Shown here piece by piece: positions 19,125 to 42,847 of a stretch of 64,000 nucleotides of DNA. Under the pieces are notes generated by a model. The model did no database searches and was not told where the DNA came from. It saw nothing but the letters and a program-made list of their open reading frames with translations. The translations under genes were made by a program, and so were the position numbers. Position 1 is the stretch's first letter. Each line of letters opens with the position of its first letter. The stretch spans positions 27,561 through 91,560 of the forward strand of contig JACRGB010000003.1 of assembly GCA_016212505.1 (NCBI GenBank), in the 5' to 3' direction. This stretch comes from Candidatus Micrarchaeota archaeon. GTDB lineage: Archaea; Micrarchaeota; Micrarchaeia; Anstonellales; Bilamarchaeaceae.

Positions 19125-19132
19125 GAATTCGG

Positions 19133-19281
19133 CAGCCACCTGTGCGCGCAGGTGGCTGGCAGCGAACGGAGTTCGCTCAACCGCGACTTGCCCACGCAAG
19201 TTGCGGGCATGGCAAGAAATACCTTGTATTTCTTGACAGTCTTGAACGGATCGCCGTTCAAGGACAGAAAACGAAGTTTTC
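19133..19281. repeat. Tandem cluster of at least 6 short GC-rich hairpins/inverted repeats between pilin-like genes
   Basis: cagccacctg-tgcgcg-caggtggctg (19133-19158); cgaac-gga-gttcg (19163-19175); gcgacttg-cccac-gcaagttgcg (19183-19205); caagaaata-cctt-gtatttcttg (19213-19235); cttgaacgg-atcg-ccgttcaag (19241-19262); gaaaac-gaa-gttttc (19267-19281). Also an imperfect direct repeat ctcaacCgcgacTtg / ctcaacAgcgacCtg. Confidence 0.5.
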
Positions 19282-19341
19282 TCAACAGCGACCTGGCCTC
19301 GAAAGTAGCTGACTTGCGCCTTTTTAGAATTGTTTTTTTGT

Positions 19342-21392: not shown

Positions 21393-21405
21393 GGTTAACT
21401 ATCAC

Positions 21406-25301: not shown

Positions 25302-25877
25302 TTAATTTTTGGCCTTTTTAATTTTCTTCAGAAGAGCATGAAACTTTTCCGCATTAAGGTAGGTGCACCCGATCTCAGATGCAAATTTCAGCACCCCTTC
25401 ATCTGAAGAAATAAGTGTTGCATCAAGCTCTTTTGTAAGCAGGACCAATTCCACATCTTCCTTGGAATCTATTATTCCGGTGCGCATCGCATCACGGTAT
25501 TTTTCCCGGAGCTTCCCCAATTTTATATCATTATCCGGATGGTTATCTTTTGCAAATTCTTCAGCAAGGCGCATGCCCTTATTTATCCGGGTGCGGATAT
25601 CATCAATAAAATCATAAAGGACTGCTGCCGGAAGGTAAATCGAATACATATTAGGCGCGCGCTTCTTGATGTGTAGCTCGAGTTCATCAGTTGTTTTCTT
25701 TTCAATAAAATTTTTCATTTCGTTAAATACCGAAGGCGGGATAAAAAGCTCAATGTTCATTTTTGCGATTATCTTGAGGAATGCCTTAACTGCCGCAGTA
25801 GGACTCTTGCCAAAATGACCCCGGGCATGGGGATTGACAAACAAGGACGTATCGATAACAAAAACTCGGTTGGGCAT
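25302..25877 (-). CDS. PIN-like domain protein (putative nuclease)
   Basis: Probable start at the Met at 25877 (MPNRVFVIDTSLF...). An Asp near the N-terminus plus ...LISSDEGV are PIN-like acidic positions. The longer ORF to 26108 has an implausible hydrophobic leader. Confidence 0.5.
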   Translation of the reverse strand: MPNRVFVIDTSLFVNPHARGHFGKSPTAAVKAFLKIIAKMNIELFIPPSVFNEMKNFIEKKTTDELELHIKKRAPNMYSIYLPAAVLYDFIDDIRTRINKGMRLAEEFAKDNHPDNDIKLGKLREKYRDAMRTGIIDSKEDVELVLLTKELDATLISSDEGVLKFASEIGCTYLNAEKFHALLKKIKKAKN

Positions 25878-25960
25878 ATGTAATAGCATAAAAAGACGTG
25901 GAATAAAAAGGTTTGCTAGGGAAAAGATATTTGGACATAAAAACATAAGGAAGGAATCAA

Positions 25961-26500
25961 ATGAAAAAAGAAGAACGGGTAGTACGAGTTCAGATCCGAC
26001 CAACTGATTCCGAACAAAAACCAGCACTGGGAAAAAGAAGAGCTCCCATGAACAGCAGTGTAACGATAACGGCAACTGAAGTAATTGAGAGATTGAAAGC
26101 AACTGCAAGTGGCTGGGATCACATCGTAGCTAACATGATCGGACTTATCAGGTTAGAAAAAGAAGAAGTAAAACTTTTCGTAAAGGAAGGAGAAAAAACC
26201 AAAATTTATTCTCTCGATGATGATGATCAGATGTTTGGGATTCTTCAGGCGCTTTCACTGGGAAGCTCATTGCCAAAAAGCCTTCCAAAATTTGCAATTG
26301 CAGTTGTAGAAGAAACAACCAACATATATTTTGTATTGGTATCGATAAATGAGAGGAGAAAAATCATAGTAAAGGCACTACTTTCTAGTTACATGGATCG
26401 AAATGAGAGTGAGTGGAGAGAGGTATTTGTTGCAATAAGGGCAGCTGAGCAGGAGTATCTCATGCCAGGAAATAGGGGCAACCTTGTCATTTCAACTTAA
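25961..26500 (+). CDS. Hypothetical protein (convergent with giant gene; ends 15 bp from its stop)
   Basis: 179-aa ORF with a protein-like composition. No recognisable motifs. Confidence 0.4.
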   Translation: MKKEERVVRVQIRPTDSEQKPALGKRRAPMNSSVTITATEVIERLKATASGWDHIVANMIGLIRLEKEEVKLFVKEGEKTKIYSLDDDDQMFGILQALSLGSSLPKSLPKFAIAVVEETTNIYFVLVSINERRKIIVKALLSSYMDRNESEWREVFVAIRAAEQEYLMPGNRGNLVIST

Positions 26501-26515
26501 TAAAAATAGTTAAAA

Positions 26516-29500
26516 CTATCTAGATGCACGCAATGCTTTTTCCGCCATAGCTTGGGCATCAGGGAGAATATCAGCCCAGATATTTTGGAAACCGTCTTTG
26601 CCACCTATAGTAAGCAAGTGACTGAATATATCCGTTGCTTCAGGTGCATCAAACACGACACGACCATGCCGATCAGCCATAACATAATCACGCTGACCAT
26701 TTATCGGCATACCGACCATCACCTGCGGAGGGTCTCCCTTTTGGCCGCCCGCATAGTATGCTTCAATTTCTTTTATCGCAGTTGGGGAAAGTGATTGCCC
26801 AGCTCCAACCATCTGGCCATCATTTTTAGCAAAAGCAGTCACCAGGTTGCGTTCAAAATCAGGGGTACTCCCAACTTCAGTATGCCATTTTTTAGCCCCC
26901 TCTTTTATGGAATGGGTTGCTGATTGGGCCACTTCAGAAACGGGGCGGCCAGACAAACGCGCAAGGCTTATAAAAACTGGAGCTAAATCTTTTGAATATT
27001 GGGGGATTAGGTGTTCTTTGGAGGAATAAAGTTCATATCCCCCTCGTGTATTTTTAGTTACCCGAAAATGGCCTGCGGCATCAGTATCTATCCGCCCGAT
27101 TTTGAATATTGCAGACTCTCCCCTAACATCTACAACAGTATAACCTTCACTCTTAAGTAATGCAACCTTTGAAGGAGGCACTTTCAGCAACATACCCTGA
27201 AGGTTTCCAGAATGATTATCCCAGGAACCTCCCATCATGAGTCCAGTGCATGCATAACCAATTTCCTGATGAACTACCTCGGGATGTTCTTTATAAAATT
27301 TGGTTAATTCGGTATTGCCTTTCATTCTAGATAAACTAGCTGCTTCCATAGTTGAAGTTTGAATTGGTTCACCCCCAAGGTTGAGAGTACCGCTAAAGTA
27401 TTTGATATGGTCTATCAAACCCCATTTAACCGCCCCACCCTCCGGAGAGGAGAACGTAAGCGGTTTACTATTTGATTCGCTAACCACTCCGGCAGTTGGA
27501 ACATTTGCTATTTGCCCGGTTTTTGCCCCGAAAGCAGCAGGCCGTAAATCCTCGGCTTTTGCAATAAATGCTCGCTCTTCACCCGAAGGGGCAACTACTT
27601 TTATCTCGTACGCTCCAACCATACCATCATGGCCGATTATCCGAGTAATTTTACTGCCTTCTGGAACTTTGGCAAGGACAGTTTCAGAAAGATTACCGGA
27701 TAATAAAAGAGATCCGATTGTAGAAACCTGCTGATGATAGTTACCCGACCTAGGATCAAAAGAATGAGAGTAGAGTCCTTTTTTCTCTAAATAAGAGCTT
27801 ACATCAGCCACAGCCGCTTCATTGCTCTTTGCATTAAGATAGACATTTTTTAATTCACCTGAAGATAAGCCAAGTGCTTTCTCAGATGCAGGCACTCCCT
27901 TAAGGTTTTCCAAATAAGTTGCAGCCGAGTGTTCTCCGGCAAGAGTTAGAGTTCTGATGCTTTGTTCTTGTTGGGCAGGAGGAGCTGCTAAAAATGACTC
28001 TGCGGATTTTGTGCGTTCTGTGACGGCTGGGGATCTTAATGATGCTCCTAATTTCTGTGCCTCTGAACGCTCTGCGCCAGTGAGTTCGTGCTGCTGCGCA
28101 CGAGGTTCAGCTGGAGTTTCTAATGCCCGAGGCAATTCTTGCACCGGAACTGCACGTTCTTGAGCCGGAGAATGCCCCGTGGCTTTATTAAGTTCAACAA
28201 CCTTTGGCGCAGTCGTCAAGGAGGTGCGTTTCTTTATTTCACTATCAAGACCATTTGCAGCCTTTTCTAATGCAACTGCCAAAAGAGGATTTGTTTTTTG
28301 ACCGCTTTCTTTAGGGGGATTACGCCAGAACTTTGCTTCATCTCGCAAAGAGCCGGCACGCTCGGATAGCTCCCCAACTTCGATTTTAGGGTTATCAATC
28401 AAACGTTGGGTCTGGAGCTTTGCCGTAGCCTCAAGGGTCACGGAGTCATTCTGCAACTGGGGAATATGCCCTTCATATATGGCCAAACCCGCTTCGTTTA
28501 ATGCGAGATTAAATTCTTGGTTTTGCCTTGGAAGTCTTTCGGTTCCGGAAACGTGTTCCCGATAAGATCTGGCGAGATTGCCTGCAGCACGGGCAGTCCG
28601 TTCTGCTTCTCCCACACCCATGCCCGAATTGATCAAACGATCCTTAAGTTCGGAAAATGCACTTTTCTCTGCGAATTTATGTGCCTCTGCTGCGACCTGT
28701 TCTTGAGGAAGAGGTTTTGCGGATTGGTCAGAGGGATGCGCCAATTCGAATTCCGCAGCTCGCCTAACCGTTTCAAATTTTTCATTAATTGCTCTAGCGT
28801 GAACATCAAGTGCACTTGCAAGTTTTACCTGCTGCTCCCGCACAGGTATTGCTTCTGCGCCTTTTCCTAGGGTATAGACAGTACCTTCTGGAGAAACGGA
28901 ACTATCTGAAAATCGCGACCGAAATCTTGTTTCATTACGAGTAAATTCAAAGTTAGGAGTTTTGAATCCATCAAAAAGTGAGACGGGTTGGCTGCTGGTT
29001 TTTTCCTGAGCCACTAAAACATCCGCACTTTGACGCAATTGCTTTGCGTCAGCAGTAAGTTGTGCAGCCCGATCTTCGAGTACTTGCGCCCCTGCAGAAT
29101 CCCCCTGGCGGTTCAATCTTCGCATTTCTGTTAATGCGTCTGTTGCTTGGGCAGTAATATGATCTGCCTGAGCAAGCAATTGTTGCGAACTTGGAACTTC
29201 TGCTTGATGGGCCATAGGCCGTACTGGAGCTGCTGACCTATTCGTCCGTTCAACTGCCAAACGCCTGGAGATGGCTCTGGAAAAATTAATTCCAAATCGG
29301 CCAACTGCACCAACATCAATACCAGCATTTGCATAAACTGGGGTCCGGTCTACGGCCTCGACAAAAGCAGCCCCAAAAACTCTAGCCCCGAATTTTACTT
29401 TATCAAAACCCTTACTCGCTGCTGATTTAGTTTTGTCTTTAGCAATCCGTGCTGCTTCTCCGGCGGTTTCTGCAGCTACGGCCATTCTTCCAACAACCCG

Positions 29501-32137
29501 CTCAGGCATAGCAACTTGAACATTAGGCCCAGTAGTGACTTTTGGGGCAGATTTTCTAGAGTTAACCGTAATTTCTCCGGAAACAACATCTCCTGCATTA
29601 ACTCCTTGAGGCATCCGGCTAGCCATAGAGTTTGGAATTTTACTTTGAGGCAGTTTCAAGGTTGGAATTTCGAAAGTTGATCCGAAGGCAGCAGTGCGCA
29701 CTTTACTGGAAAAACCTTCAATAACAAATGAGCTGGTCCTCCTATAAGAGGATTTAGCCAGATTAAAAGCACTTTTACGTGAATGCCACAAGGGCAGTGC
29801 ATTATAGAGCAAATCAGCCCCGCCACTTGCCCAGTCACCTTGACGGATCTGACTATACGCGCTACCAACTCCTTCTACAGAAAAACCGAGATTGATACCC
29901 GTTTCTGCCACCCTAAATGCCACGCCGGCATGGCCTAAATTAAACGCATTTGCAGATCCTTTGAGAAGCGGGTTAAATCTAAGCCCAACTACGCTAGTGA
30001 TAAGCATGAGTTGGGTTTTCCACGAAACATCCCCGGTAAAGTATTGCTCCCGAGCAGCGCCCCGGAATGCACTTGCAACACCAAAAAATTGGCCGATAAC
30101 CGGAATAAATGCAACTAGCCTCTCGGCCCATTCATTCAACTTATCTGCAACGTGCATTTTATGTTTTAGTTCATCAAATCGGATTTGAAGCTCTTCCCCG
30201 GCCTGATCAGCAAGTGCCTGAGCACGGTAATTCTGCTTAACTCCGCTATAATATCCTATCAGCTTTTTTGATTGGGCAACAATGGCATCTTGGAGCTTGC
30301 CTTCACCAACTGCAAAAACACGGGAACTTGAGGTGCACACGGAAGCTTCAAAGCGGGCCATAACTTCTGCAAGTTTCTGGTTGTTTTTATCAAAACCCTT
30401 CCCTTCCAGATGTTGATCAAGCAAATGCAACGAAGCATCCATAAAAAATCCAAAATTATTTCTCACAGGATCTATTTTCCCGCTCCTATCAAGAAGGGCA
30501 GCTGCAGAAGCATTGTATTGTTCACCCATCGAACGGGTATCTATCCGAAGCATATTCATTGCAGCGGCCTTAGCCCTAACCGCATCCGTGAATGATCGCC
30601 TGACGGTTTCAGACATTCCTCCAGAAAGATAGGAACTTAGGGCAGCATCATAGGATTTTCTCATAGTGTCAAGACTTTCCATACCGCGAAATTCTTTGGT
30701 TTCTTTCCAGTCGCCCTGACGAACTGCCTCGTAATATCCTGAAGCATTCCTGGTTTCATTCATCAAAAAGATCCCGGTAGAGACAAAAGCAACGGCTTCG
30801 TTTCTGGATTTATAAAATTCTGCAATTTTAGCACTGGCTGCAGATAAATCAGAAAGTTTTCCGCTTTTTTTTGCTTTTTCTATTTCACCCTTAAGTTTTG
30901 CAGATTCTGCCTCTACAGATTCTAATCGTGCAATGAATTTTGGGATTTCATACCGAAATGAGTCTCCAAACTGTGAATGTACGAATTTCTTTAGTTCATC
31001 AGTACTGGCCAATTCGCCCAATTGTTTTTCCTGTGCATTTACATATTCGAGTTGTTTTTTTGTTATGAACTCATTGGTTTTTTTATCAAACTCAGGAAGT
31101 AGTTTGTTTACCTTAGCAACATCTCTTTTTTCTATAGCCAATTTCACTTCATCAAGGGATTTTTGAAGCTCGGGGATTTCGCCGTAACTGGCAGATAGTT
31201 GCATATATGCTTCTCTGCGTTGTTCCAGAACAGATTTCGTCGTAGGAATTTTGCCGTCCTTATCTTTCTTGCCAGGCTGTGGCTGCGTAAGGCTAATACA
31301 ATATTTTGCATCCTCAAATTTTTTCATGCCATGTGCAAATGCAGCTTCTGCATTCTGAATATCGCCCTTAAGGTGTAATGAAACTGCTTCTTTTAGGTCG
31401 TCTAGGCCGTCTGATTTTTTTATGCCCTTAATATTTAGGGCATCTTCGTAACTCATAAGGCGGTCAAGTGCAGCATCTGCTTGGGCAAAGATTTGGTGTG
31501 CTGATTGTGGATTTTTTTCTTCTGGTGCAGAATCATAAAGTTTTTTGATTTGTAATGCAGCACTTTTGATGAAGGGGTCAGATGAGGCCAGAAGTTTTGG
31601 AACAGTGGAACGAAAATCACCGAGTGCTTTTGACTGCTCTACTTCATTAACACGGGAATTCATCTGCCCGATAAGTGCCCCTGCAGCGCCTCTTAGACTA
31701 TCATCAACCTTGTTTTGTTTAAACTGTAAAAGTAAATAATCAGTTTGGGACTTAAACTGCTCAAAAAGATTTACAGAGTGATCAGCTGGATCGATTTTGG
31801 CTTTCCCTAAGTCATTCATACGGGTAAGCAACTCCGCAAGTGCAAGGCAAACCTGCCCATTTGCATAACTAACATCGGTTAGGCCTTCTTTTTGAGCGCG
31901 GACAAAAAAAGCATTAGCCCGTTTGCCGAGTTCACTTACGCGCACATCGTCAGATCTCGCATACCCTCTTGCAGAAGCCCTTAATGCGTCAGGAGCACTG
32001 TTCAGCTTAACATCTTGAATATCTTTAATGGCAGTCTCTTGTGCACGGGCAGCAACTGCACCTAATACGGGGGCAAGTGCACTAACTTGTCTTGTCGGGT
32101 CATTTTCCTGAGGGTTGTAGAAGTGGGGCATAGGCAT
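26516..32137 (-). CDS. Giant (1873 aa) signal-less, largely helical protein with a central hydrophobic hairpin, a Gly/Ala-rich region and a C-terminal PI3K/PI4K-like kinase catalytic core; candidate effector/toxin
   Basis: Uninterrupted 5.6-kb ORF. It appears GC-richer than its surroundings. There is no N-terminal signal peptide. The first ~670 residues are K/E/A/Q-rich and coiled-coil-like. Hydrophobic segments lie at residues ~673-693 (LVAFIPVIGQFFGVASAF) and ~708-720 (QLMLITSVVGL). Residues 725-960 are G/A/S-rich. Residues 1524-1691 carry FIAKAEDLRP (Lys motif), GSWDNHSGN (D-x-H-x-x-N catalytic loop) and IDTDAAGHF (DFG-like). The Lys-to-DxH spacing of ~115 aa matches PI3K spacing. Confidence 0.85.
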   Translation of the reverse strand: MPMPHFYNPQENDPTRQVSALAPVLGAVAARAQETAIKDIQDVKLNSAPDALRASARGYARSDDVRVSELGKRANAFFVRAQKEGLTDVSYANGQVCLALAELLTRMNDLGKAKIDPADHSVNLFEQFKSQTDYLLLQFKQNKVDDSLRGAAGALIGQMNSRVNEVEQSKALGDFRSTVPKLLASSDPFIKSAALQIKKLYDSAPEEKNPQSAHQIFAQADAALDRLMSYEDALNIKGIKKSDGLDDLKEAVSLHLKGDIQNAEAAFAHGMKKFEDAKYCISLTQPQPGKKDKDGKIPTTKSVLEQRREAYMQLSASYGEIPELQKSLDEVKLAIEKRDVAKVNKLLPEFDKKTNEFITKKQLEYVNAQEKQLGELASTDELKKFVHSQFGDSFRYEIPKFIARLESVEAESAKLKGEIEKAKKSGKLSDLSAASAKIAEFYKSRNEAVAFVSTGIFLMNETRNASGYYEAVRQGDWKETKEFRGMESLDTMRKSYDAALSSYLSGGMSETVRRSFTDAVRAKAAAMNMLRIDTRSMGEQYNASAAALLDRSGKIDPVRNNFGFFMDASLHLLDQHLEGKGFDKNNQKLAEVMARFEASVCTSSSRVFAVGEGKLQDAIVAQSKKLIGYYSGVKQNYRAQALADQAGEELQIRFDELKHKMHVADKLNEWAERLVAFIPVIGQFFGVASAFRGAAREQYFTGDVSWKTQLMLITSVVGLRFNPLLKGSANAFNLGHAGVAFRVAETGINLGFSVEGVGSAYSQIRQGDWASGGADLLYNALPLWHSRKSAFNLAKSSYRRTSSFVIEGFSSKVRTAAFGSTFEIPTLKLPQSKIPNSMASRMPQGVNAGDVVSGEITVNSRKSAPKVTTGPNVQVAMPERVVGRMAVAAETAGEAARIAKDKTKSAASKGFDKVKFGARVFGAAFVEAVDRTPVYANAGIDVGAVGRFGINFSRAISRRLAVERTNRSAAPVRPMAHQAEVPSSQQLLAQADHITAQATDALTEMRRLNRQGDSAGAQVLEDRAAQLTADAKQLRQSADVLVAQEKTSSQPVSLFDGFKTPNFEFTRNETRFRSRFSDSSVSPEGTVYTLGKGAEAIPVREQQVKLASALDVHARAINEKFETVRRAAEFELAHPSDQSAKPLPQEQVAAEAHKFAEKSAFSELKDRLINSGMGVGEAERTARAAGNLARSYREHVSGTERLPRQNQEFNLALNEAGLAIYEGHIPQLQNDSVTLEATAKLQTQRLIDNPKIEVGELSERAGSLRDEAKFWRNPPKESGQKTNPLLAVALEKAANGLDSEIKKRTSLTTAPKVVELNKATGHSPAQERAVPVQELPRALETPAEPRAQQHELTGAERSEAQKLGASLRSPAVTERTKSAESFLAAPPAQQEQSIRTLTLAGEHSAATYLENLKGVPASEKALGLSSGELKNVYLNAKSNEAAVADVSSYLEKKGLYSHSFDPRSGNYHQQVSTIGSLLLSGNLSETVLAKVPEGSKITRIIGHDGMVGAYEIKVVAPSGEERAFIAKAEDLRPAAFGAKTGQIANVPTAGVVSESNSKPLTFSSPEGGAVKWGLIDHIKYFSGTLNLGGEPIQTSTMEAASLSRMKGNTELTKFYKEHPEVVHQEIGYACTGLMMGGSWDNHSGNLQGMLLKVPPSKVALLKSEGYTVVDVRGESAIFKIGRIDTDAAGHFRVTKNTRGGYELYSSKEHLIPQYSKDLAPVFISLARLSGRPVSEVAQSATHSIKEGAKKWHTEVGSTPDFERNLVTAFAKNDGQMVGAGQSLSPTAIKEIEAYYAGGQKGDPPQVMVGMPINGQRDYVMADRHGRVVFDAPEATDIFSHLLTIGGKDGFQNIWADILPDAQAMAEKALRASR
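27000..27900 (-). other. PI3K/PI4K-like (atypical lipid/protein kinase) catalytic domain within the giant protein
   Basis: Codons 1524-1691 map to ~27065-27568. rc(27541-27580) encodes ERAFIAKAEDLRP. Motifs are described in the parent feature. Confidence 0.4.
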
Positions 32138-32146
32138 TACCGATAA

Positions 32147-32422
32147 TCAGGGAGAAGGCAACTCACGACAGAGTTCATCCAAAACGCCAAGACTTTCTGA
32201 AATAAGTTCTAAATCAGTACTATTGCCATAAACATCTCTCCAGTATTCCAGTGCGCTTTTCCATTTTTCAAGCCGTACGAGTTCTTCAGGAGGAGTTTTG
32301 GACTTAAATTTAGGGTTATTTAGGTTTAATGCGATGGATATTGACTTAATACTTTTATCAACTCGGTAGATAGAATTACCGTAAAGTTTGAGCAATTCGG
32401 AATCTAAATTCTGATCTGCCAT
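32147..32422 (-). CDS. Small acidic cytosolic protein, translationally coupled to the giant gene (possible chaperone/adaptor)
   Basis: 91 aa. Its stop lies 10 nt upstream of the giant protein start codon. No TM. Helical and acidic composition. Confidence 0.5.
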   Translation of the reverse strand: MADQNLDSELLKLYGNSIYRVDKSIKSISIALNLNNPKFKSKTPPEELVRLEKWKSALEYWRDVYGNSTDLELISESLGVLDELCRELPSP

Positions 32423-32495
32423 AATTGTGGTATCACAGAACGTAAATAAAAAACCACCTTATGAGTAGGACTCAATGGACCCATAATAAAAAGAC

Positions 32496-33596
32496 CTAGA
32501 TCAGTTTCACCAGTCCCCTTCCTATTTCCGGGATGTTTCCCCCAAATAAGTTCGCTGCGTTAAGGGTGAATGTCATAAATACCACCATTGCGATTAATGG
32601 GAAGAGGCAAATTGCTGAAAGCAGATGGAGGGCAAGATCCGAAAGATGGTAGGTCACCAATTCAGTAAGCTGGCCATAGTTTGCTCTTAATCGGACTACG
32701 GATTCGCTTAAGCTGCCGACGCTGGGGCTCTGGCAGGCATAAGTTGAAAGATCATCTGGAACAGATGGAAGCATGCAGTCGTATTTGAACGAGCTTTCAA
32801 GGGGCGCGGGATTTGGGTTTGCAACAAGCAGAGAGGTCTGCACATGGGGAAGCGACATAGTTGCCACTAGGATATAAGTAAGGGGAAATACGAAATATAT
32901 GCCTACTGAAATTGCCATCATAAATGCGCCGGCACCGCGCACTGGGGGAAAGGCACGGAGTGCAACCCCAACAGAAAAGAAGAAACCAGCATAATATTTG
33001 ATGAAGGTGAAGGTATGGACAATAAGATAATACATGTACATGTAAAATGACATTGATTTTGTTGCGGTTGCAATTCTTTCTGAAAGCCATTTTATACCAA
33101 ATCCCGAGGCCACTTCGGACATGAAAATTTCCATATAAACAGATGAAATGGCCTCCACAGGGATGCTGAGGCCATAAAGGACTTTCATAAAACCGCTAAC
33201 GCATCTTGCCGGGGTTTCCATATAAAGGATCATCCAGTCGATGAGCGTGTTTTGGCTAAATACCACGCCATTCCAGGGAAAATCGTTCGAGTTGAGCTGG
33301 AAGGTAGAAAGATAAAGTGACTTTGCAACAGAACTGTGGAGTCCTGGCAGGGGCGCTCCTTGGGCAAGCAGGGGTTCGCCAACCTGGGCAAGCGCGGCCA
33401 CCATAATCACAATAAGCACGGTGGATACTGCATAAACAAATTCCGTTTTCGCTGTCTGCTCGAGGTTACGTAGGGAAAAGAGCCGGGAAAACATAATCAG
33501 CATGGCAGCAACTACTACTGATAGTGATGCTGCGGCAACCGCAAGCAATTCCCAGCCTGCATAGAAAGACGAACAGAAAAAAGTTGTACAAACCAT
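32496..33596 (-). CDS. Polytopic membrane protein, paralog family member P1 (366 aa)
   Basis: Shares the N-terminal motif (SRLFSLRNLEQTAKTEF), the loop motif ALRAFPPVRGAGAFMMAISVGIYFVFP and the C-terminal ...GNIPEIGRGLVKLI with the five upstream paralogs. Confidence 0.7.
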   Translation of the reverse strand: MVCTTFFCSSFYAGWELLAVAAASLSVVVAAMLIMFSRLFSLRNLEQTAKTEFVYAVSTVLIVIMVAALAQVGEPLLAQGAPLPGLHSSVAKSLYLSTFQLNSNDFPWNGVVFSQNTLIDWMILYMETPARCVSGFMKVLYGLSIPVEAISSVYMEIFMSEVASGFGIKWLSERIATATKSMSFYMYMYYLIVHTFTFIKYYAGFFFSVGVALRAFPPVRGAGAFMMAISVGIYFVFPLTYILVATMSLPHVQTSLLVANPNPAPLESSFKYDCMLPSVPDDLSTYACQSPSVGSLSESVVRLRANYGQLTELVTYHLSDLALHLLSAICLFPLIAMVVFMTFTLNAANLFGGNIPEIGRGLVKLI

Positions 33597-34847
33597 CTAG
33601 ATCATCCTCGTTAATGAACTTATATCTACTTCTTCGCCGAAAATTGCGCTGAACCTCCTTGCAGCTTCAATAAACACAAGGACATTTAGGGCAGGGGCAA
33701 GAAACGCGAATAAAAATGCAAGTGCTACCACGGAAATTGGGATCATTATAATTATTGTAAATGTATCCCCAACAATGGACTGGAGGATGGAGCCAACTCC
33801 GCCATAAGTACCGCTTACAATGTCAGTAATGCCTCCATTGCCAAAACCTTTGGAGAAAAAATCGCTTGCATGCTTCATGAAACCGCCCGGGGTCAGGTCG
33901 CTAAAGAAATTGCGGAGGAAATCTGTCCAGTTAACTAAAGGATTCCCAAGACCGCTTAACATGACACTAAAGGTAAGGACGGTAAGGAGGGGAAATACAA
34001 GGAGGAATGCTGCGGAAATCCCAATCAGGGTCCCTCCAACCCTCCGGGTCGGGGTAAAGCAGCGGAGGAAAATACCTGCTGGCAGATAATAGTGAAGGAA
34101 TGCCTGTAATGAAAATAGGTAAACAAATAGCTGCGCATACATTATGATATATGCAACAGATAATGCAACCGACATATTATACAGCAGTTGTTTTATAGGG
34201 GAGAAAAATCCTGCAAAGGGAGTTGCTACAAGCCCAACGCCAAGAGGCCGGGCATAGGGAGTAACCGAAGCGAACTGGTCTACAATCACATTTAGCAGGT
34301 AGCTCATATCCAGCCAACTGCCGACATAGTATCCACCAAGTTCAAAAAATGCCCCTGCGACCTTATATACTGAATCTCCGGCCACAACACCAGTAAAACC
34401 AGAACCTAGTGGAGTTGCTTTTGGGAAAAAGTCTTCTGGAAGGGAGGATCCCATATCAATATTTGCAAGGACAGCAATTGAGCCCAAAATGATAACTGCA
34501 AGAAAACCGGAAATGACAAGTTCGAGAAGTTCCTGCTTTACGAAATTTATGACCATCTGGTTCCTTAGCAGGGTACCAAAAATATAAAATAATGCAAGAA
34601 GCACTGCTGAAACCATTAAAGCTAAACCCGATGGGGCAACCCAGTCCCACATGCCGGCAAACTGGGTGGAAACTATTGAATCAGCATCAAGCTTGAACAT
34701 TCCTGCAGTTCCCTGCGGGGGGGAGGGGTTTTGGAAAGGCGGGGCCTGCACACAGCCCGAGCTGATAAGAAATAGGAAAATGGCGGCGAGGAGGATGAAT
34801 ATTTTGGTTTTTTTGTTGCCGATCATACGCATAGTAAATCTCCCCAT
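33597..34847 (-). CDS. Polytopic membrane protein, paralog family member P2 (416 aa)
   Basis: Motifs GTLLRNQMVINFVKQELLEL and FLRCFTPTRRVGGTLIGISAAFLLVFP. C-terminus EEVDISSLTRMI. Abuts P1 with no gap. Confidence 0.7.
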   Translation of the reverse strand: MGRFTMRMIGNKKTKIFILLAAIFLFLISSGCVQAPPFQNPSPPQGTAGMFKLDADSIVSTQFAGMWDWVAPSGLALMVSAVLLALFYIFGTLLRNQMVINFVKQELLELVISGFLAVIILGSIAVLANIDMGSSLPEDFFPKATPLGSGFTGVVAGDSVYKVAGAFFELGGYYVGSWLDMSYLLNVIVDQFASVTPYARPLGVGLVATPFAGFFSPIKQLLYNMSVALSVAYIIMYAQLFVYLFSLQAFLHYYLPAGIFLRCFTPTRRVGGTLIGISAAFLLVFPLLTVLTFSVMLSGLGNPLVNWTDFLRNFFSDLTPGGFMKHASDFFSKGFGNGGITDIVSGTYGGVGSILQSIVGDTFTIIIMIPISVVALAFLFAFLAPALNVLVFIEAARRFSAIFGEEVDISSLTRMI

Positions 34848-36110
34848 TCATATAAGTTTTAAGAACCCAAAGAAATTAACATTAACTCCGAAGAACTTTG
34901 CAGTTTCCTTTGCTGCAGTAAGGGTAACGAAAATATTAAAGAACGGCAGCAGTACGGCCATCATGACGATATAGTATACGGACCCCCGCACAAGCTCAAA
35001 GGCCAGTGAAACTATCCCTCCCATGAAGAATGGCACCAGCACGCCGCTCGTAAGCAGCATTGAAATAACCGCAGTCCCAAAGACATTGAAGATCCCGCTG
35101 TTGGTAATGAAGCTGTTTATTGCTTTTTGGGCATCGATGATATTTCCACGCATTAGCTTGTGGACCTCATAGTCAATCAGGAACATGAACGGGTAAACGA
35201 GCGCGAGCGAAAATGCAATTGCGATCAAGGCTTCGCCTGCATTCCGCGTAAAAGGTATTGCACGAAGAAGGATGCCTAGCGGAATGAATAAGCTCCATGT
35301 CCACTTTTTGATTATGCATAGGGTGACAAGGTGGAGCAGCCATTCGCTAATGCCAAGGGAAAGGAACTGCAACGACGTACCGATAACATCAATAAGGGGC
35401 TTGAGTATGGGACCCATGTTAAACGAATACATTGCACGCCAGGTAACGCCAAACCACATTGTAGATGAATAGATCGTATGGACTACGGTGTTGTAAAGAA
35501 GGAGCATGCTGTAGTCGGTTGACATTTCGGTTATCATAACCCGGGTGAACTGTAGCGCGGCATCCATCATATTTGAATTGAAACGTGGATTGCCATAAAT
35601 AGGGTCGGCACTTGCATTCCCTGCACTAAATGAAAACCATAGCCCGCCCATGCCAATTGCCACAAGGATGACCATCACCCTGCGGATGGTGATTGTGGTC
35701 TGGTAAAGCTCATCTTTTGCAAGTGCGATTAATGAGGGCGAACTGAGAAGCTGGCCGAGCATATAAAATGCAGCGATTCCAAAAAAAACTACAAAAAGTG
35801 CAAGAATTGTAGGTGCAATCCAAAGTACATTTACAGTATCAGGAGAAATTGCAGGATTCGGGTTGGGGTTTTGGACTGAGAGGAAAGGATCATCGCAAGA
35901 GCTTCCCTTAAGGGTGTCAAAGAGGCTGTTGATGCCTACTGCGGCAGCTCCGGCGGGTGCCACTGCAGTATTTTTTATGTCATCCCAGCCCTTGTTCATA
36001 TTGTCGACGAATTTTTGGAATGCAGTGCTCCCAGCATTTTGGTCTGGCGGGTCGGCAAATAGGATGGAGGTGGAGAAGATCAGGATCAGGAATATGGGTA
36101 GCACCTTCAT
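34848..36110 (-). CDS. Polytopic membrane protein, paralog family member P3 (420 aa), signal peptide
   Basis: Starts MKVLPIFLILIFSTSILFA. Motifs GQLLSSPSLIALAKDELYQT and LLRAIPFTRNAGEALIAIAFSLALVYP. C-terminus VNVNFFGFLKLI. Abuts P2. Confidence 0.7.
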   Translation of the reverse strand: MKVLPIFLILIFSTSILFADPPDQNAGSTAFQKFVDNMNKGWDDIKNTAVAPAGAAAVGINSLFDTLKGSSCDDPFLSVQNPNPNPAISPDTVNVLWIAPTILALFVVFFGIAAFYMLGQLLSSPSLIALAKDELYQTTITIRRVMVILVAIGMGGLWFSFSAGNASADPIYGNPRFNSNMMDAALQFTRVMITEMSTDYSMLLLYNTVVHTIYSSTMWFGVTWRAMYSFNMGPILKPLIDVIGTSLQFLSLGISEWLLHLVTLCIIKKWTWSLFIPLGILLRAIPFTRNAGEALIAIAFSLALVYPFMFLIDYEVHKLMRGNIIDAQKAINSFITNSGIFNVFGTAVISMLLTSGVLVPFFMGGIVSLAFELVRGSVYYIVMMAVLLPFFNIFVTLTAAKETAKFFGVNVNFFGFLKLI

Positions 36111-36111
36111 A

Positions 36112-37611
36112 TCAAATCAGCCTCGTAAGTCCTGCTATTTCTATATCCCCGCCAAAGGTCATGGAAAGCGAACGTATTGCGGCAATAGTGGAAATTATTG
36201 CAAGCAATGAAAAGAACATTGACCAGAAACTAAGCCTTGCAAGGATATCGAGCGGGCCATTTGGTTCCCAGGAAAAATTAATCCAGCTATCTTGCTTGCT
36301 CGCTTGGGAGAGTTGGCCGAACCAGCTATCCCGGTCGGTAGGATCGAACGCTTTTTCTGCCGCGGCAAGCGCTTTCTGCTGTTCTGCAACTACTGCCGGA
36401 TCCTTGCTGGCAGGATCATCACCTGGGCCTGCATTGAATCTGGGAATTAACTTATTGGTGGCTGGATCATTTTTTTCGATAGTTTCAAGATAGGCCAAAT
36501 CATAGGGATTGACCCCTTCCTTGGCAACACCCGAATACCCTTGTATATTTGCAAGAGTCTGCTGAGCACCCCGGGTGTCGAGCTTATTGCCCCCTCCTAT
36601 TACAGGTACAAAACCCAGTATATACATGGTGTTTGCAATTGGAGGGTCGGGATTGAGTTTGCCAAGAGGATTGGCTTTTACATTTAGGGGAGAAACCCAA
36701 TCATCACGGACATTATCCTTGAGCTGGATCATTACCAGCCCGGCAAAAGCATAGAAGGTCGGATAGATGAAATAGAGGGCAATTGCAATTGCAAGCATAA
36801 GGCCACCAAGGCGCCGGGTAAATGTGAATGTACGCAGAAGGGTCCCGGCAACAAAGAACGAAGGGAATATGGCAAGTGCGATAAAGCGCAGGAAAATTTC
36901 CTGCATCTTAGTGATCATAAGGATTTTCATGGCCCATTCAAATGCCAGAGATTTGACATTATTGCCCATTGTGAAGAATCCCCTCCAGGGGTTGAATGTG
37001 ATGAACCCGGTTTTTTCAAAAATAGTTTCAAAGTTTATAGTAAATTCTGCGGCCATAGAAGTCCAGATATAGTCGATATAGGTATTGAATGCAAAAGTAC
37101 TAGTTTCATCAAACACTTCCCGCAGGTGCCAGATGCCCATACGTACAGAACAGGAGGAAATGCCATTGTAAACAGAATATTGGTTTTCAGCAATATCGTC
37201 CCCGCATATGTCTATACACGCATAGTCACGTATGCCATTGTTTACCAGCGGGATCTGACCTGCACGAAATTGTTGGACGTAAGTTGTAGTTGCAGTAGTT
37301 GCGCCAGGGCAGAGGGTCCCAGGAGAAGGTTGGGGATTATTTCCGATACCCTGGTGCGGCATCAGGAGAATAGCCCCATGCACAACACCATCAACAAGCG
37401 GAAGGCTGGTTATTGCAAAAGAAAGGATTATCGCTGAATAAAATAATTCTGCTAGTTCCATTTTGGCCCATGCCTTTATTTTATCGTTCATGAGCATGCT
37501 GCCGATCATATACACTCCGCCAATTAGGCAAGTAACTATTCCGAATGCAATTCCGGCAAAAGCGAGCCAGTCGCCCCAGAACAATTTTATAGTTGTAAAT
37601 ACATCGACCAT
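36112..37611 (-). CDS. Polytopic membrane protein, paralog family member P4 (499 aa)
   Basis: Motifs GSMLMNDKIKAWAKMELAEL and LLRTFTFTRRLGGLMLAIAIALYFIYP. C-terminus GDIEIAGLTRLI. Confidence 0.7.
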   Translation of the reverse strand: MVDVFTTIKLFWGDWLAFAGIAFGIVTCLIGGVYMIGSMLMNDKIKAWAKMELAELFYSAIILSFAITSLPLVDGVVHGAILLMPHQGIGNNPQPSPGTLCPGATTATTTYVQQFRAGQIPLVNNGIRDYACIDICGDDIAENQYSVYNGISSCSVRMGIWHLREVFDETSTFAFNTYIDYIWTSMAAEFTINFETIFEKTGFITFNPWRGFFTMGNNVKSLAFEWAMKILMITKMQEIFLRFIALAIFPSFFVAGTLLRTFTFTRRLGGLMLAIAIALYFIYPTFYAFAGLVMIQLKDNVRDDWVSPLNVKANPLGKLNPDPPIANTMYILGFVPVIGGGNKLDTRGAQQTLANIQGYSGVAKEGVNPYDLAYLETIEKNDPATNKLIPRFNAGPGDDPASKDPAVVAEQQKALAAAEKAFDPTDRDSWFGQLSQASKQDSWINFSWEPNGPLDILARLSFWSMFFSLLAIISTIAAIRSLSMTFGGDIEIAGLTRLI

Positions 37612-37652
37612 ATTGCATCCTCAGAGGTTTACTCATAAATTCTTCAAAATAC

Positions 37653-39416
37653 CTACATTTTCATCAGTATAAATTTCGTCATCGCATTTATGAATGCTAT
37701 AGTGACCATAATTGAGAGTGCGGGCATAAATAATGATAGAAGGGTAAGTACCGCAAAGTGCCGCATGATTATTGTAAATTCCGGCATGGGCAGGAGCCCC
37801 AGTACCCCTTCTGAGAAAAAATTACCCAGTGACTTTTGCACCGCAGTCCCTTTGGGAAGGTATTCGAATATTTTCCCCGGTGCAGTAGCGGGATTAAAGA
37901 AATAGCCAAATGCACCGTATTTTACCGGCCCGCATATTGAGTAAATTAAGGTGTTGGGGCTTTGGTATCCCGAAGGCCCAAGGTCCTCATACGCTTTCTT
38001 ATCGATCAGATAACCCATCGGAAAAACAATTTGGAAGCCTAATGCAAATGCCATAAGGAATGCACCTGCATCGCGGGTGGGCGGGAAAAAGTGCAGGATA
38101 AGCCCCGCAGGGAGGAAAAAATTACCCATAGTAGAATCTATGAAATAGAGAAGGCTGATTTGCGCAGATAAGCTGCCATAAACAGCTACGAGCCCATAGG
38201 AAAGGACATTGGAAATAGAAACAAAAGTATCGATTCCAGGAAAAACCTTATAGGTACGGGTAAGCACGGATTCTCCGATCCTTCTTGCATAAACGCTGAG
38301 CATGGAAGTGCAGGACTGTATCGAGTAAACATCATATATGCCGTTTAGTACTGGATCAAGTGCCTTCTCTTGCAGGAAATTTATTGCGGCAAGGGAAGGC
38401 GAGTTGGTATGGTAAGCATCATTTGCCCAAGCTGAAACGATCTGGCTGCCTACAACGAAAAGTCCTGCCACAAAGAGGACAAGAAGGAATGAGCGGAAAA
38501 GGTTGGAAAGTTCGACATTGAGGTAGCCCTCCCATTCAGGAACCCGGAAAACTTTTGAAACTATATAAGTCAGGAAAATTATCAGGGAAACAAAAAAGAA
38601 TACGTTGATCATCAGGTCAGCGTAGGGAGAAATGGATGCGGCAGTGCCTATTTTTGTCTGAAGTATCGAATCAAATGCGCCACCTTTAGCTAAAAAGACC
38701 TTGAATACGACGAAATAGACTATTGCTACAATAAAAGTACTTGCAAGGAGATTATTCGCAAATCCGGTTGCCCTGGCCCGGGTTTCTGCGCCAAACATCA
38801 TCCCGGCAGCATAGAAAACCGCTGCAAGAATAGCAAAGACGATTGTCAGGAATGCAAGTGAATTTTCGGATATGGTTTTTAGGTCGCTGAAGATTTTTAA
38901 GAAATCGACGGATGATGGCTCGCCACCGGCATTAAGGCTGGGCTGGATGATCGAGAGGAGGAAGAACATTATGATTATTACTAACGCCGAAACACCAACC
39001 GCAGTAAGCATGCTTTCAGTCCAGGTAGATGCTTTTGCTCTTAAGTCTGCACCAAACATCTGGCCAATAACATAAACTGAAGCCGCTATTACGATCATGG
39101 TGATTAGGAGAATCCCCATGACAGAAAGGGCAAAGGGAAGTAGGGAATTAGGGGAACTGTTAAGGGCGGATAAGGGATCAATTGGTGGATTGGCGGCAAA
39201 TGAAAATGAGGGCAGGAGTAGCGATAGAAATAGCACAAGCAGGAAGAGCGAGAAAGGAGTTTTTATGTTTTTTATTATATTGGAATTTGCAAATTCCAAT
39301 GCGTGGAGAAATTCTTTGGAATTTCTCCTGTAGCGAACCGTGTTCGCTACGGACAAATTTTTGCGAAAATTTGTCCTTGTAGTCTTCGTGAAGTCCATTA
39401 ATAGCACCCTTTTCAT
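37653..39416 (-). CDS. Polytopic membrane protein, paralog family member P5 (587 aa; 5' end doubtful)
   Basis: Motifs GQMFGADLRAKASTWTESML and LILHFFPPTRDAGAFLMAFALGFQIVFP. Lacks the GLTR-type C-terminal tail. Its first ~45 codons are made of four tandem DNA palindromes (see repeat feature). Confidence 0.65.
   Translation of the reverse strand: MKRVLLMDFTKTTRTNFRKNLSVANTVRYRRNSKEFLHALEFANSNIIKNIKTPFSLFLLVLFLSLLLPSFSFAANPPIDPLSALNSSPNSLLPFALSVMGILLITMIVIAASVYVIGQMFGADLRAKASTWTESMLTAVGVSALVIIIMFFLLSIIQPSLNAGGEPSSVDFLKIFSDLKTISENSLAFLTIVFAILAAVFYAAGMMFGAETRARATGFANNLLASTFIVAIVYFVVFKVFLAKGGAFDSILQTKIGTAASISPYADLMINVFFFVSLIIFLTYIVSKVFRVPEWEGYLNVELSNLFRSFLLVLFVAGLFVVGSQIVSAWANDAYHTNSPSLAAINFLQEKALDPVLNGIYDVYSIQSCTSMLSVYARRIGESVLTRTYKVFPGIDTFVSISNVLSYGLVAVYGSLSAQISLLYFIDSTMGNFFLPAGLILHFFPPTRDAGAFLMAFALGFQIVFPMGYLIDKKAYEDLGPSGYQSPNTLIYSICGPVKYGAFGYFFNPATAPGKIFEYLPKGTAVQKSLGNFFSEGVLGLLPMPEFTIIMRHFAVLTLLSLFMPALSIMVTIAFINAMTKFILMKM
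39280..39376. repeat. Four tandem perfect palindromes at the P6/P5 junction, two of them the same motifs found upstream of dnaG
   Basis: TTGGAATTT-gc-AAATTCCAA (39280-39299); GGAGAAATTC-tttg-GAATTTCTCC (39305-39328); TAGCGAAC-cgt-GTTCGCTA (39331-39349); GGACAAATTT-ttgcga-AAATTTGTCC (39351-39376). Confidence 0.55.
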
Positions 39417-40690
39417 ACCACTTTTGTTAAACCGACCAATTCAGCTTCACCGCCAATTAGCATAGAAATGCTGCGGTACATTGTCACGGTGATTATTATT
39501 TCCAGGACAGTGGTGAGTATCACAAGCACAATAAATGGTGAAATGGTCCCAACTTCGTTCAATATGAAGTAATAGAGCCCGGCTGAAGAACTCGTAGGAA
39601 GGAAAGTTGATTTGGACCCAAAGAGGCTGGGGTAAAAATCGCCGGTTGTGCCTACCATAAAGAGCCAGATATTTCTTACAGTTGCAGCCAAAGATCCTCC
39701 TGTATTCCAGGCTGCACGAGCCATATTTTTGAGACTGCAAAGCAGACCAGTAACCCCATCACATCCGAGAGTTGGGGTTTTTGTTGCATCTGCAAGCTTG
39801 TCTGCTTCTTGAAATTCCTTGGTGATCGCATCGGTCCTACTCCCCTCCCTCCATTCAGTTATGAGTTTGGTCCAATAACCCTCATCATGATGAGTTGCAA
39901 GGTAAGATGGAGTTTGCGGGGTGTAAACAAAATCCGCTGGTTTGTACATGGAAAAAATCAGATAATGTGAAAAAATTGTGGCAAAGGGAAGGACAAAATA
40001 CATTGCAAAACAAATTGCGAGGATGCTTGAACCTGTGGTCCGGTAAAAGGGAAATGCACGGAGGATGAGGCCAAAGGGAAGGATAATTAATGGGATTGCG
40101 TCTTTAGTGAAAATGAGTATAAATTCCTTGGCCATTAAAACAGTAACAAGATAACTGATAGTCTCTACGATTATGGTGTGGGCATCACTAAGAAGGGTTA
40201 GTCCGGTAAATGGTGCAAATGAAAATGAGATAATGGCTACTGAGGGTATGGGCGAGCTGACCGGGAAACTGACTGTGGAAAGGAAACCTATCAGGGCTTC
40301 AAAAAGATAAAGGTCAATATACTGGGAGAAAAGCTTTTCTTTTAGGATAGTTAACACGCCAAGGGCAAGGTTGATATGTGCAGAGGTATAAACCTGATTT
40401 GGGTTTGCATTATTTATTACCCCACCAAGCCCTGAAGTACTTGATTGCAGCGCACCCTGGACCAGGGCATTTAAGGTGGTATCGAGGCTAAGCCAAAAGA
40501 AAATGATTACTGCAGAAAAAATTAAAGCAGCCAGTTCTTCCTTTGCAATAGCAGTAATTGAAGGGCTTTGTAAAAAATAAGCCACAAGAAATATTGAGCC
40601 GGTTAACCCCGTGGCAAAACCAAGGGAAACAAATATCATAGACCAGGCTGCTGGCGGTAAAGTTATTGCCAATAGCAGGGGAAGTAGCAT
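39413..40690 (-). CDS. Polytopic membrane protein, paralog family member P6 (425 aa), first gene of the locus
   Basis: Motifs AYFLQSPSITAIAKEELAAL and LILRAFPFYRTTGSSILAICFAMYFVLP. C-terminus GGEAELVGLTKVV. Confidence 0.7.
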   Translation of the reverse strand: MLLPLLLAITLPPAAWSMIFVSLGFATGLTGSIFLVAYFLQSPSITAIAKEELAALIFSAVIIFFWLSLDTTLNALVQGALQSSTSGLGGVINNANPNQVYTSAHINLALGVLTILKEKLFSQYIDLYLFEALIGFLSTVSFPVSSPIPSVAIISFSFAPFTGLTLLSDAHTIIVETISYLVTVLMAKEFILIFTKDAIPLIILPFGLILRAFPFYRTTGSSILAICFAMYFVLPFATIFSHYLIFSMYKPADFVYTPQTPSYLATHHDEGYWTKLITEWREGSRTDAITKEFQEADKLADATKTPTLGCDGVTGLLCSLKNMARAAWNTGGSLAATVRNIWLFMVGTTGDFYPSLFGSKSTFLPTSSSAGLYYFILNEVGTISPFIVLVILTTVLEIIITVTMYRSISMLIGGEAELVGLTKVV

Positions 40691-40741
40691 AAATAAACTA
40701 CTTCAGCACTTTTTATAAAAGCACCTGATATTATTCTATTT

Positions 40742-42106: not shown

Positions 42107-42502
42107 TCAATAGTTTTCCGCAGTAATTCCAGGAATCCTTGAAAAATGCTTTACATTTTCAGTTATTATAACGTTTTCTCCATTGGTTAATGCAATTGCG
42201 GCAATTAGAGCATCAGTTTCATTCACATCTTGGCCTTTTTGTTTAAGTTCTGCAGAGATACGCGCAGCACCATCGGTGCTTGTGGCATCTAATTCAAGTA
42301 TGGTTATTGAATCAAGAAAAGCATAAAAAATTTTAAGTTCTTTCTCTTTTACATCGGATTTTTGAAAATATATTCCAACTAGCACTTCAAAAACATTTAT
42401 TCTCGTAGTAAAAACATCTGAAGAAAGTGTTTTTACCTTACGTAGTGCGCTTTGCTTATTTTTTAAAAAATGAATAATGAAGGTCGTATCAAGAACTACC
42501 AT
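42107..42502 (-). CDS. vapC: PIN-domain toxin VapC
   Basis: 131 aa. MVVLDTTFIIHFL plus C-terminal acidic residues. Overlaps the upstream small gene. Confidence 0.8.
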   Translation of the reverse strand: MVVLDTTFIIHFLKNKQSALRKVKTLSSDVFTTRINVFEVLVGIYFQKSDVKEKELKIFYAFLDSITILELDATSTDGAARISAELKQKGQDVNETDALIAAIALTNGENVIITENVKHFSRIPGITAENY

Positions 42503-42732
42503 TTTAGAGGCACCTTTCTCCAGTTTTTCCTTACTTTCTTTACTACGGTTTCCATTTCTTTTGTCTCTTTTTCAGACATAAAGCTCCATGAGCCTGCAAA
42601 GTCCATAAAGTTTTTTTTACTCTTTTGCGGATGTATGAACTTGTGGATCACCTTACTATAACTTTCGCCAGGCCTTTTAAGGGTGGTAAGTTCCTTGTAA
42701 ACTGCATCAGAAATCATTATTGCATGGGCCAT
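42496..42732 (-). CDS. Putative VapB-type antitoxin
   Basis: ~78 aa if started at the Met at 42732 (MAHAIMISDAVYKELTTLKRPGESYSKVIHKFI...). Overlaps the vapC start by 7 nt. Confidence 0.5.
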   Translation of the reverse strand: MAHAIMISDAVYKELTTLKRPGESYSKVIHKFIHPQKSKKNFMDFAGSWSFMSEKETKEMETVVKKVRKNWRKVPLKW

Positions 42733-42847
42733 CAAGTCACCTATATATACATAGTATATATACATTTAAAATAGTTTCGAAAACAGGAGAACTACTAAAT
42801 TTAGGAGAGATAGAAGTAGATTAATGCTATAAATTAATGAAGCAAAA

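Follow-up and report, generated by a model that had tools for sequence, protein, structure and literature searches.

Here, we describe a locus on the minus strand of a 64,000-nucleotide (nt) window, a stretch of a Candidatus Micrarchaeota contig in whose coordinates all positions are given, and argue that it joins two unrelated elements by mere adjacency. Positions 26516-40690 carry eight long open reading frames (ORFs), which encode six polytopic membrane proteins (P6 to P1), a small acidic protein (S91) and a giant protein (G). A reading made from the sequence alone (hereafter, the sequence-only reading) had taken them for a single secretion/effector system. We are highly confident that the locus instead consists of two independent units, a P operon (32496-40690) and a cassette (25961-32422) made up of S91, G and a convergent third gene, orf179. 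The best explanation of the whole, which we hold with moderate confidence, is an operon for a hetero-oligomeric envelope complex next to an independent, inserted giant-kinase cassette. The novelty lies in the P proteins as a family and in their organisation as six paralogs; the kinase-like domain of G belongs to a known superfamily.

Gene order and conservation of the P operon

The P operon is headed by P6 (39413-40690; 425 amino acids, aa), followed on the same strand by P5 (37653-39416; 587 aa, with a signal peptide), P4 (36112-37611; 499 aa, with large extracytoplasmic insertions), P3 (34848-36110; 420 aa, with an N-terminal signal peptide that is kept in orthologues), P2 (33597-34847; 416 aa, with a signal/lipobox-like N-terminal extension seen in this genome only, the median length of its orthologues being 365 aa) and P1 (32496-33596; 366 aa), the smallest and best conserved of the six. 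S91 (32147-32422, minus strand; 91 aa, pI 4.9) opens the cassette and is followed by G (26516-32137, minus strand; 1873 aa). Successive gaps from P6 to G measure -4, 41, 1, 0, 0, 73 and 9 nt. The sequence-only reading had the coordinates right but counted nine ORFs where eight are present; its spacers of 0-40 nt are exceeded by the P1/S91 gap of 73 nt, and the acidic 91-aa protein does precede the giant, at a stop-to-start distance of 9 rather than 10 nt. P1, P5 and G are identical or near-identical to the hypothetical proteins HY988_00760, HY988_00780 (581 aa there) and HY988_00750 of a Candidatus Micrarchaeota metagenome-assembled genome (MAG).

The distribution of the P operon was surveyed in one genome per GTDB species with patterns derived from P1, which yielded 76 loci, all titled Micrarchaeota, Micrarchaeia, Anstonellales, 'archaeon' or 'ainarchaeum'. 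When the proteins of the window were compared by tblastn with 79 loci at a cut of 80 bits, the complete collinear order 6-5-4-3-2-1 was recovered in 61 of the 79, that is, in every complete one; in the other 18, contig ends intervene or genes fall below the cut. The six-gene set is retained over a range of P1 identities that reaches from 82% to about 30%, with median gaps between the genes of 0-8 nt across species, and no extra P copy was found in the window or in the 10-kb flanks on either side of the surveyed loci. One-to-one orthologues of P6 to P1 follow one another in the same order, at 42-53% identity (47% for P6 in both), in Ca. Bilamarchaeum dharawalense (L001) and in a groundwater Micrarchaeote (L002), where they are bordered at one end by a divergent aspS gene and at the other by genes for PIN_5, RNA ligase, CDP-archaeol synthase (CarS) and an S49 peptidase. 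Most loci likewise show divergent aspS upstream, with PIN_5 in the same orientation as P1 and 30-120 nt downstream of it. The P operon is also typical in L019, L033 and L066, three loci from records titled 'Candidatus ainarchaeum sp.'; it would exceed one phylum if these are Iainarchaeota and not mislabelled Micrarchaeota.

The P operon is therefore a constitutive part of a conserved core neighbourhood in the Micrarchaeota surveyed and not an inserted island. The same flanking genes border the locus in the window, as the sequence-only reading had recognised in calling the flanks housekeeping, and the window as a whole represents core archaeal genome, with genes for MCM, several aminoacyl-tRNA synthetases, DnaK/DnaJ, primase and CarS, together with 5S rRNA. 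The idea of an island within this core genome thus survives for the cassette only, the P operon being collinear in all 61 complete loci. A check of GC and codon usage had been proposed to reveal deviation, and neither G nor the P genes deviate: G (GC 0.451, GC at third codon positions 0.339, synonymous Kullback-Leibler (KL) value 0.033) and the P genes (GC 0.43-0.47, KL 0.056-0.111) lie inside the range of the other genes in the window. With no deviation in composition, a recent horizontal acquisition of all 14 kb was rejected.

PIN_5 was considered as a further member of the P operon and is not required in it, because the cassette separates PIN_5 from P1 here. As annotated in the window, the PIN_5 ORF (25302-26108, minus strand; 268 aa, TTG start) has probably been called too long: the Pfam match begins at residue 83, orthologues have 189-195 aa, and an ATG lies at about 25877 behind a T/A-rich element.

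A recurrent cassette, here between P1 and PIN_5

The arrangement S91 -> G <- orf179 is a variable cassette inserted between P1 and PIN_5. Its third gene, orf179 (25961-26500, plus strand), falls beyond the positions covered by the sequence-only reading and is homologous to ORFs that follow the giant at four other loci (L080, L081, L086 and L087), all of which show the same three-gene arrangement. There, relatives of G with 1,342-6,046 aa are preceded by a small ORF of 88-100 aa, which ends 4-10 nt before the giant's start or overlaps it, and directly followed by a convergent ORF of 180-328 aa. The small ORFs of L080, L081 and L087 are homologues of S91 (phmmer E 2e-21, 4e-26 and 6e-23, respectively), and that of the remaining locus matches in size and position with no detectable similarity to S91; homologues of orf179 are present at L081 (3e-18), L086 (6e-9), L080 (4e-6) and L087 (profile E 4e-24). 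The neighbourhoods of these cassettes vary and include ribosomal proteins, a Cdc48-like AAA+ protein, an H+-PPase and toxin-antitoxin genes.

The two units do not travel together. Homologues of S91 or G were found in none of the 79 P-operon loci, and P genes are absent near all four other cassettes. The cassette is missing from the P1-PIN_5 site in all other loci; in lineages with additional DNA at this site, the slot holds unrelated genes on either strand, such as those for a diphthamide synthase, a Methyltransf_28 protein, HTH regulators and unknown proteins; even in the closest relative found (L082, P1 identity 73%), an unrelated convergent gene follows P1 in its place. The cassette is thus an independently mobile unit. 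The proposed synteny check gave a split answer, in that the six P genes are syntenic among related genomes and S91-G is not syntenic with them, and the single apparatus-chaperone-cargo system that had been proposed does not fit these counts.

Sequence elements around the junction point the same way. The divergent spacer between P6 and aspS, 51 nt long, holds a TATA-like element, TTTTATAAAA (40711-40720, minus strand), whose centre lies about 25 nt 5' of the P6 ATG and which, as read from the sequence, is a candidate promoter. A T-rich run, GTCTTTTTATTAT (32483-32495, minus strand), directly follows the P1 stop as a candidate archaeal terminator of the P operon, and another TATA-like element, TTTTTATTTA (32443-32453, minus strand), lies about 26 nt 5' of the S91 ATG as a candidate promoter of S91-G. 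Since a T-run follows P1 and a TATA-like element precedes S91, a separate S91-G transcript is suggested, with the P operon transcribed on its own. A 15-nt direct repeat sits exactly at both edges of the cassette, one copy (ATAAAAAGACGTGGA, 25888-25902) at the PIN_5-proximal edge and the other (ATAAAAAGACCTAGA, 32486-32500) overlapping the P1 stop codon at the opposite edge, with 13 of 15 positions identical. Repeats this short are expected by chance and only their position is notable; the pair could reflect duplication of a target site or of a terminator/TATA element, or could be a coincidence.

That the small protein is coupled to the giant, as had been proposed, is borne out by the S91 homologues that precede giants at three other loci; judged by this sequence conservation, S91 truly belongs with the giant as a partner that has been conserved. 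In bacteria, ShcA-HopA1 is a pair formed by a type III effector and a small chaperone encoded by the gene upstream, and S91, being small, acidic and helical and encoded directly upstream of a large protein that carries no signal peptide, resembles it in arrangement. S91 most likely acts as a dedicated partner of G, as its chaperone or regulator. The cassette differs from that pair in having no type III machinery and in including the convergent orf179; moreover, G itself has no HopA1 domain, and a chaperone role of S91 is putative.

The giant protein and its kinase-like domain

The length of the G ORF is far beyond chance at 42% GC, and, as had been noticed, no N-terminal signal peptide was found in it. 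Its N-terminal region (29726-32095, minus strand; residues ~15-804) is conserved in three other giants of 1,342-2,116 aa, P0126, P0128 and P0164 (phmmer E 1e-44, 5e-19 and 1e-34, respectively). Within it, hydropathy and alignment delimit a Gly-rich block (29738-30160, minus strand; residues ~660-800) of four weakly hydrophobic helices, which is possibly a membrane-interacting segment.

The C-terminal part of G (26696-27748, minus strand; residues 1464-1814) is a divergent, atypical protein-kinase-like (PKL) domain, in line with the kinase-like domain that had been claimed for it. Both marks of the PKL superfamily, a bilobal kinase fold and the catalytic residues, were found: a Gly-rich loop at residues 1502-1510, K1527, D1640-x-H1642-x-x-N1645 and I-D1684-x-D1686. 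These supply the ATP-binding Lys, the Asp/Asn of the catalytic loop and a metal-binding Asp, and in an alignment of 24-32 homologous domains K1527, D1640/H1642/N1645 and D1684/D1686 either do not vary or are kept in 90% or more. The domain is predicted to be active. Sequence searches gave no kinase family for it: fragments of G had no match in Pfam at E <= 10, kinase models included; the PI3_PI4_kinase profile of Pfam did not match the domain; and searches of PDB sequences with G and with a profile of the domain returned nothing meaningful, so that the domain counts as a divergent, atypical superfamily member. The closest known systems are actin-fragmin kinase and the catalytic domains of PI3K, PI4K and PIKK enzymes, structural neighbours at 10-15% identity, from which the G-type domain differs in sitting inside giants of 1,300-7,300 aa.

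An exhaustive phmmer search of 1.84 billion representatives with residues 1420-1873 of G turned up 45 further proteins, with 37 matches at E <= 1e-10 when G itself is counted. These relatives are mostly giants of 1,300-7,300 aa that carry the domain near the C-terminus, sometimes twice, and all those with a named source come from Micrarchaeota or Bilamarchaeaceae; the same MAG holds a 3,612-aa paralog of G, HY988_00195, at 51% identity. In a word-indexed search, full-length G had found itself only and the C-terminal fragment had found nothing, not even G. 'Orphan' verdicts from such a search are thus untrustworthy for G-like proteins, for which exhaustive phmmer recovered the 45 relatives.

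Three other giants had no match in Pfam. One relative of G, P0133 (L086:5001-23141; 6,046 aa, Micrarchaeota), contains a significant domain of HopA1, a Pseudomonas type III effector family, at residues ~4757-4923, upstream of its kinase-like domain, at 75.3 bits against a cutoff of 22.7; Pfam searches found none in G. With a bona fide HopA1 domain in one relative, it is plausible, on sequence grounds, that the giant family is effector-like.

The P family: paralogy, motifs and fold

P1-P6 are true paralogs, as the sequence-only reading had stated. Pairwise blastp comparisons give E values of about 1e-4 to 1e-9 (0.004-0.009 for the weaker P5/P6), and when the alignments of the six ortholog groups are compared by hhalign, the probabilities are 97.8-99.7%. 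All six have a common signature, consisting of AKxE, then G..LRxFPxTRxxG and, 15 residues beyond it, an invariant Pro; in all but one of the six groups, the protein terminates precisely at [KR][LIMV][IV]-COOH behind an FGGxxxxxGL tail. Across 365 orthologues from the six groups, the Glu of AKxE is conserved in 96%, the two Arg in 98% each, and the Gly and Pro in 100%. In P1, which has more than 115 orthologues at 42-82% identity, the signature residues are E52, G210, R214, R220, G223 and P238, and the C-terminus reads ...GGNIPEIGRGLVKLI. In P5, residues ~95-260 form two extra tandem hairpins of the first two transmembrane helices (TM1-loop-TM2; ...GQMFGADLRAKAS... and ...GMMFGAETRARAT...) before the family core, and P5 orthologues share both additional copies.

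For each P subunit, we predict an N-out/C-in topology with five transmembrane helices. The N-terminal tail is free of Lys and Arg, which are enriched in loop 1, loop 2 and the C-terminal tail; the cysteines lie in the two large ecto loops; and P3 and P5 orthologues carry conserved signal peptides. An AlphaFold2 (AF2) model of P1 built from 116 orthologues (pLDDT, the predicted local distance difference test, 86.3; pTM, the predicted template modelling score, 0.83) is all-alpha, with very long helices of 36-46 residues and one small beta hairpin. With this topology, the transmembrane helices would extend into an all-helical ectodomain with conserved cysteines, and the three shared motifs (AKxE loop, LRxFPxTRxxG turn and C-terminal tail) would all lie on the cytoplasmic face.

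No relative of the family was recognised in the collections searched. The eight proteins of the locus and orf179 had zero matches in Pfam, NCBIfam, PHROGs and PADLOC scans, an individual Pfam scan of 106 P-family members revealed no recurring family, and profiles of 6 and of 106 P sequences met nothing meaningful among PDB sequences. No profile match in Pfam, NCBIfam or PDB links the P proteins to the FlaJ/TadC/GspF platform, SecY or ABC permeases; for VirB6/TrbL, neither a profile nor a fold match was found, and no VirB4-type ATPase is encoded nearby. Foldseek gave no match at E < 0.5 for the P1 model in the PDB, and the weak matches that recur, TTYH2 (E 0.84-1.6) and TrwI/VirB6 (E 1.3-4.4, TM-score 0.15-0.31), are not significant. 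The statement that the membrane proteins belong to no recognised secretion or transporter family thus agrees with all these searches, and the proposed fold check, made on the AF2 model of P1, likewise pointed to no known transporter family. Pfam, NCBIfam and a motif scan found no ATPase domain or Walker A motif among the proteins of the locus, so the claim that it contains no ATPase gene also stands.

The P family and its six-paralog organisation are previously undescribed, with no detectable relative in Pfam, NCBIfam or PDB, and literature searches on Micrarchaeota and DPANN membrane families, VirB6, giant proteins and the S-layer yielded no account of the P operon or the cassette. As a general statement, many lineage-specific families of DPANN archaea are membrane-bound or extracellular (PMC8204110).

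What the P operon may encode

We consider it fairly probable, from gene organisation and sequence, that P1-P6 form a single hetero-oligomeric complex. In all of the complete loci (61/61), each paralog group is represented once and the order is fixed, and one copy of each of six ancient groups per locus, together with invariant order, near-zero gaps and deep persistence, is the pattern expected of obligate subunits. As a crude further test, rate covariation was assessed from pairwise distances between proteins after regression on the corresponding distances of housekeeping proteins encoded nearby; the residuals of the six groups correlate at r 0.61-0.82 (21-27 species), which is no more than suggestive of subunit association. 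Hence, the six proteins would assemble in fixed stoichiometry into one envelope complex, most likely a pseudo-symmetric ring built in the order of gene translation, and the identical motifs that the predicted topology places on one face of all six would fit repeated contacts between subunits, or with a common partner, in such a ring. The complex may serve as a conduit, a platform or a scaffold; a conduit or platform spanning the membrane in these host-dependent cells is the role we favour, though only tentatively, and it would not be a dedicated exporter of the neighbouring giant.

Known systems offer partial parallels. In mycobacterial Mce transporters, six tandem-encoded paralogous proteins, MceA-F of Mce1, form one heterohexamer. 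The P operon resembles this case in its six ancient paralogs in fixed order within one operon and in its long helices beyond the membrane, and by analogy a hetero-hexameric assembly would be the natural reading of its gene organisation. The analogy is one of organisation alone: no sequence or fold relationship exists, Mce proteins have one transmembrane helix and an MCE domain whereas P proteins have five such helices, and the P locus is without YrbE permease or ATPase partners. MCM2-7 and Mce both serve as reference cases for hetero-oligomeric complexes of paralogs, whose one-of-each feature the P operon matches. TTYH (Tweety homologue) proteins would share with the P proteins five transmembrane helices, an N-out/C-in orientation and an ectodomain of helix extensions, and TTYH2 is among the top Foldseek matches; however, that match falls short of significance (E 0.84-1.6, TM-score about 0.2), sequence similarity is absent, and TTYH proteins are eukaryotic and homomeric. 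VirB6/TrwI, an inner-membrane platform that recurs weakly in Foldseek, is likewise a polytopic membrane protein with long helices, but the P proteins have no TrbL/VirB6 match in Pfam and the locus has neither a VirB4 nor a VirD4 ATPase.

Several points weigh against this interpretation. The proposed topology derives from hydropathy, the positive-inside rule, the monomer AF2 model and the signal peptides of P3 and P5. Paralogs of one fold can share rate covariation with no physical contact, and the control regression itself pushes P-to-control values towards zero. Neither a pore nor a substrate site nor an energiser (ATPase) was found in the P proteins or the locus. The apparent limit to Micrarchaeota derives from P1-specific patterns and a word-prefiltered search, which could have missed distant DPANN relatives. 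Furthermore, effector genes often lie at a distance from those of the machines that secrete them and, because they need not adjoin them, absence of linkage leaves room for a functional connection between the P operon and G-type giants, although no result obtained here speaks for one and we judge it improbable. In a bolder version, which we also think unlikely, P6-P1 would be a Micrarchaeota-specific, pseudo-hexameric host-interface translocon of a new structural class that either exports the signal-less kinase/HopA1-type giants of the G family to the interior or surface of the host or imports host lipids or metabolites, and the window would show the machine and one client adjacent by chance.

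Among the alternatives, the reading that makes P1-P6 the secretion apparatus, S91 the chaperone and G the cargo of one novel secretion/effector system can draw on the lack of signal peptides in G and its relatives, the HopA1 type III effector domain in one of them, the small acidic partner directly upstream (as in many effector/chaperone pairs), the occurrence of the P family and the G-domain family in Micrarchaeota only, and a P complex that carries no assigned function. Nevertheless, 61 complete P operons stand with no S91 or G nearby and four other cassettes with no P genes nearby; the T-run after P1 and the TATA-like element before S91 suggest separate transcripts; the locus has no ATPase or other energiser; and likeness to secretion components goes no further than the non-significant VirB6 matches (TM-score 0.23-0.31, E > 1). 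We therefore regard a single system as distinctly improbable.

Two further alternatives concern the P proteins themselves. They might be six separately acting paralogs, for example substrate-specific transporters or membrane enzymes, clustered only through tandem duplication. The P1 monomer is indeed modelled confidently alone (pTM 0.83), and the set of E, R, R, G and P residues in all six could be a repeated catalytic or binding site; yet independent families usually show lineage-specific gain and loss, whereas each complete locus has one of each in fixed order, near-zero gaps and invariant order hold down to about 30% P1 identity, and the six groups share one rate component, all of which makes separate action unlikely. 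Alternatively, the P proteins might be highly diverged VirB6-like or pilus-platform parts serving a type IV pilin-like gene cluster at 18165-22056, given that TrwI/VirB6 chains recur among the weak Foldseek matches and that this conserved cluster with class III signal-like ORFs lies ~10 kb away and appears, by ORF size, in L001 and L002 as well. Against this stand the lack of any TrbL, T2SSF or FlaJ Pfam signal in 106 P members, an operon with no VirB4, FlaI or PilB ATPase, and the housekeeping genes between the two clusters, so that a pilus platform seems very improbable. A hetero-oligomeric envelope complex, with an independent cassette beside it, remains the reading we favour.

Other features of the window

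The cluster at 18165-22056 (minus strand) comprises five tightly packed ORFs of 216, 539, 144, 224 and 171 aa, with N-termini that resemble archaeal class III (type IV pilin-like) signal peptides (e.g., MKGQSSMELFVTIAIV, MRGQYFSFDAIVASV and DRKGFLFTVTVFL); the 539-aa ORF has no Pfam match, and in L001 and L002, ORFs of comparable size come after the gene for the S49 peptidase. At 43881-49624 (minus strand), a 1,508-aa protein with a signal peptide, very many N-x-S/T sequons and a weak MG2 match is encoded by a gene that overlaps that of a 406-aa Ser/Thr/Pro-rich protein with a C-terminal transmembrane anchor. These two are candidate S-layer or surface proteins, with no homologue in the other loci at E <= 1e-8. 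A 131-aa PIN-domain ORF that overlaps an upstream 89-aa ORF (42107-42765, minus strand) probably forms a VapBC-type toxin-antitoxin pair with it. The 64-kb window contains no tRNA gene and a lone 5S rRNA gene (57946-58060, minus strand).

Implications

For annotation, this locus is a caution that tight packing on one strand can, by itself, make a core operon look like one 'system' with a cassette that was inserted beside it. Micrarchaeota are DPANN archaea that depend on hosts and have small, reduced genomes, and six membrane paralogs that such genomes keep in a fixed order throughout the sampled diversity of the group probably serve something essential to the cell envelope or to symbiosis; the P family offers a concrete six-gene target in cultivated Micrarchaeota. 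The cassette, in turn, defines a family of giant proteins of up to 7,300 aa with an atypical kinase domain, at least one member of which has a bacterial-type effector domain, and the giants of the G family are candidate host-manipulating factors.

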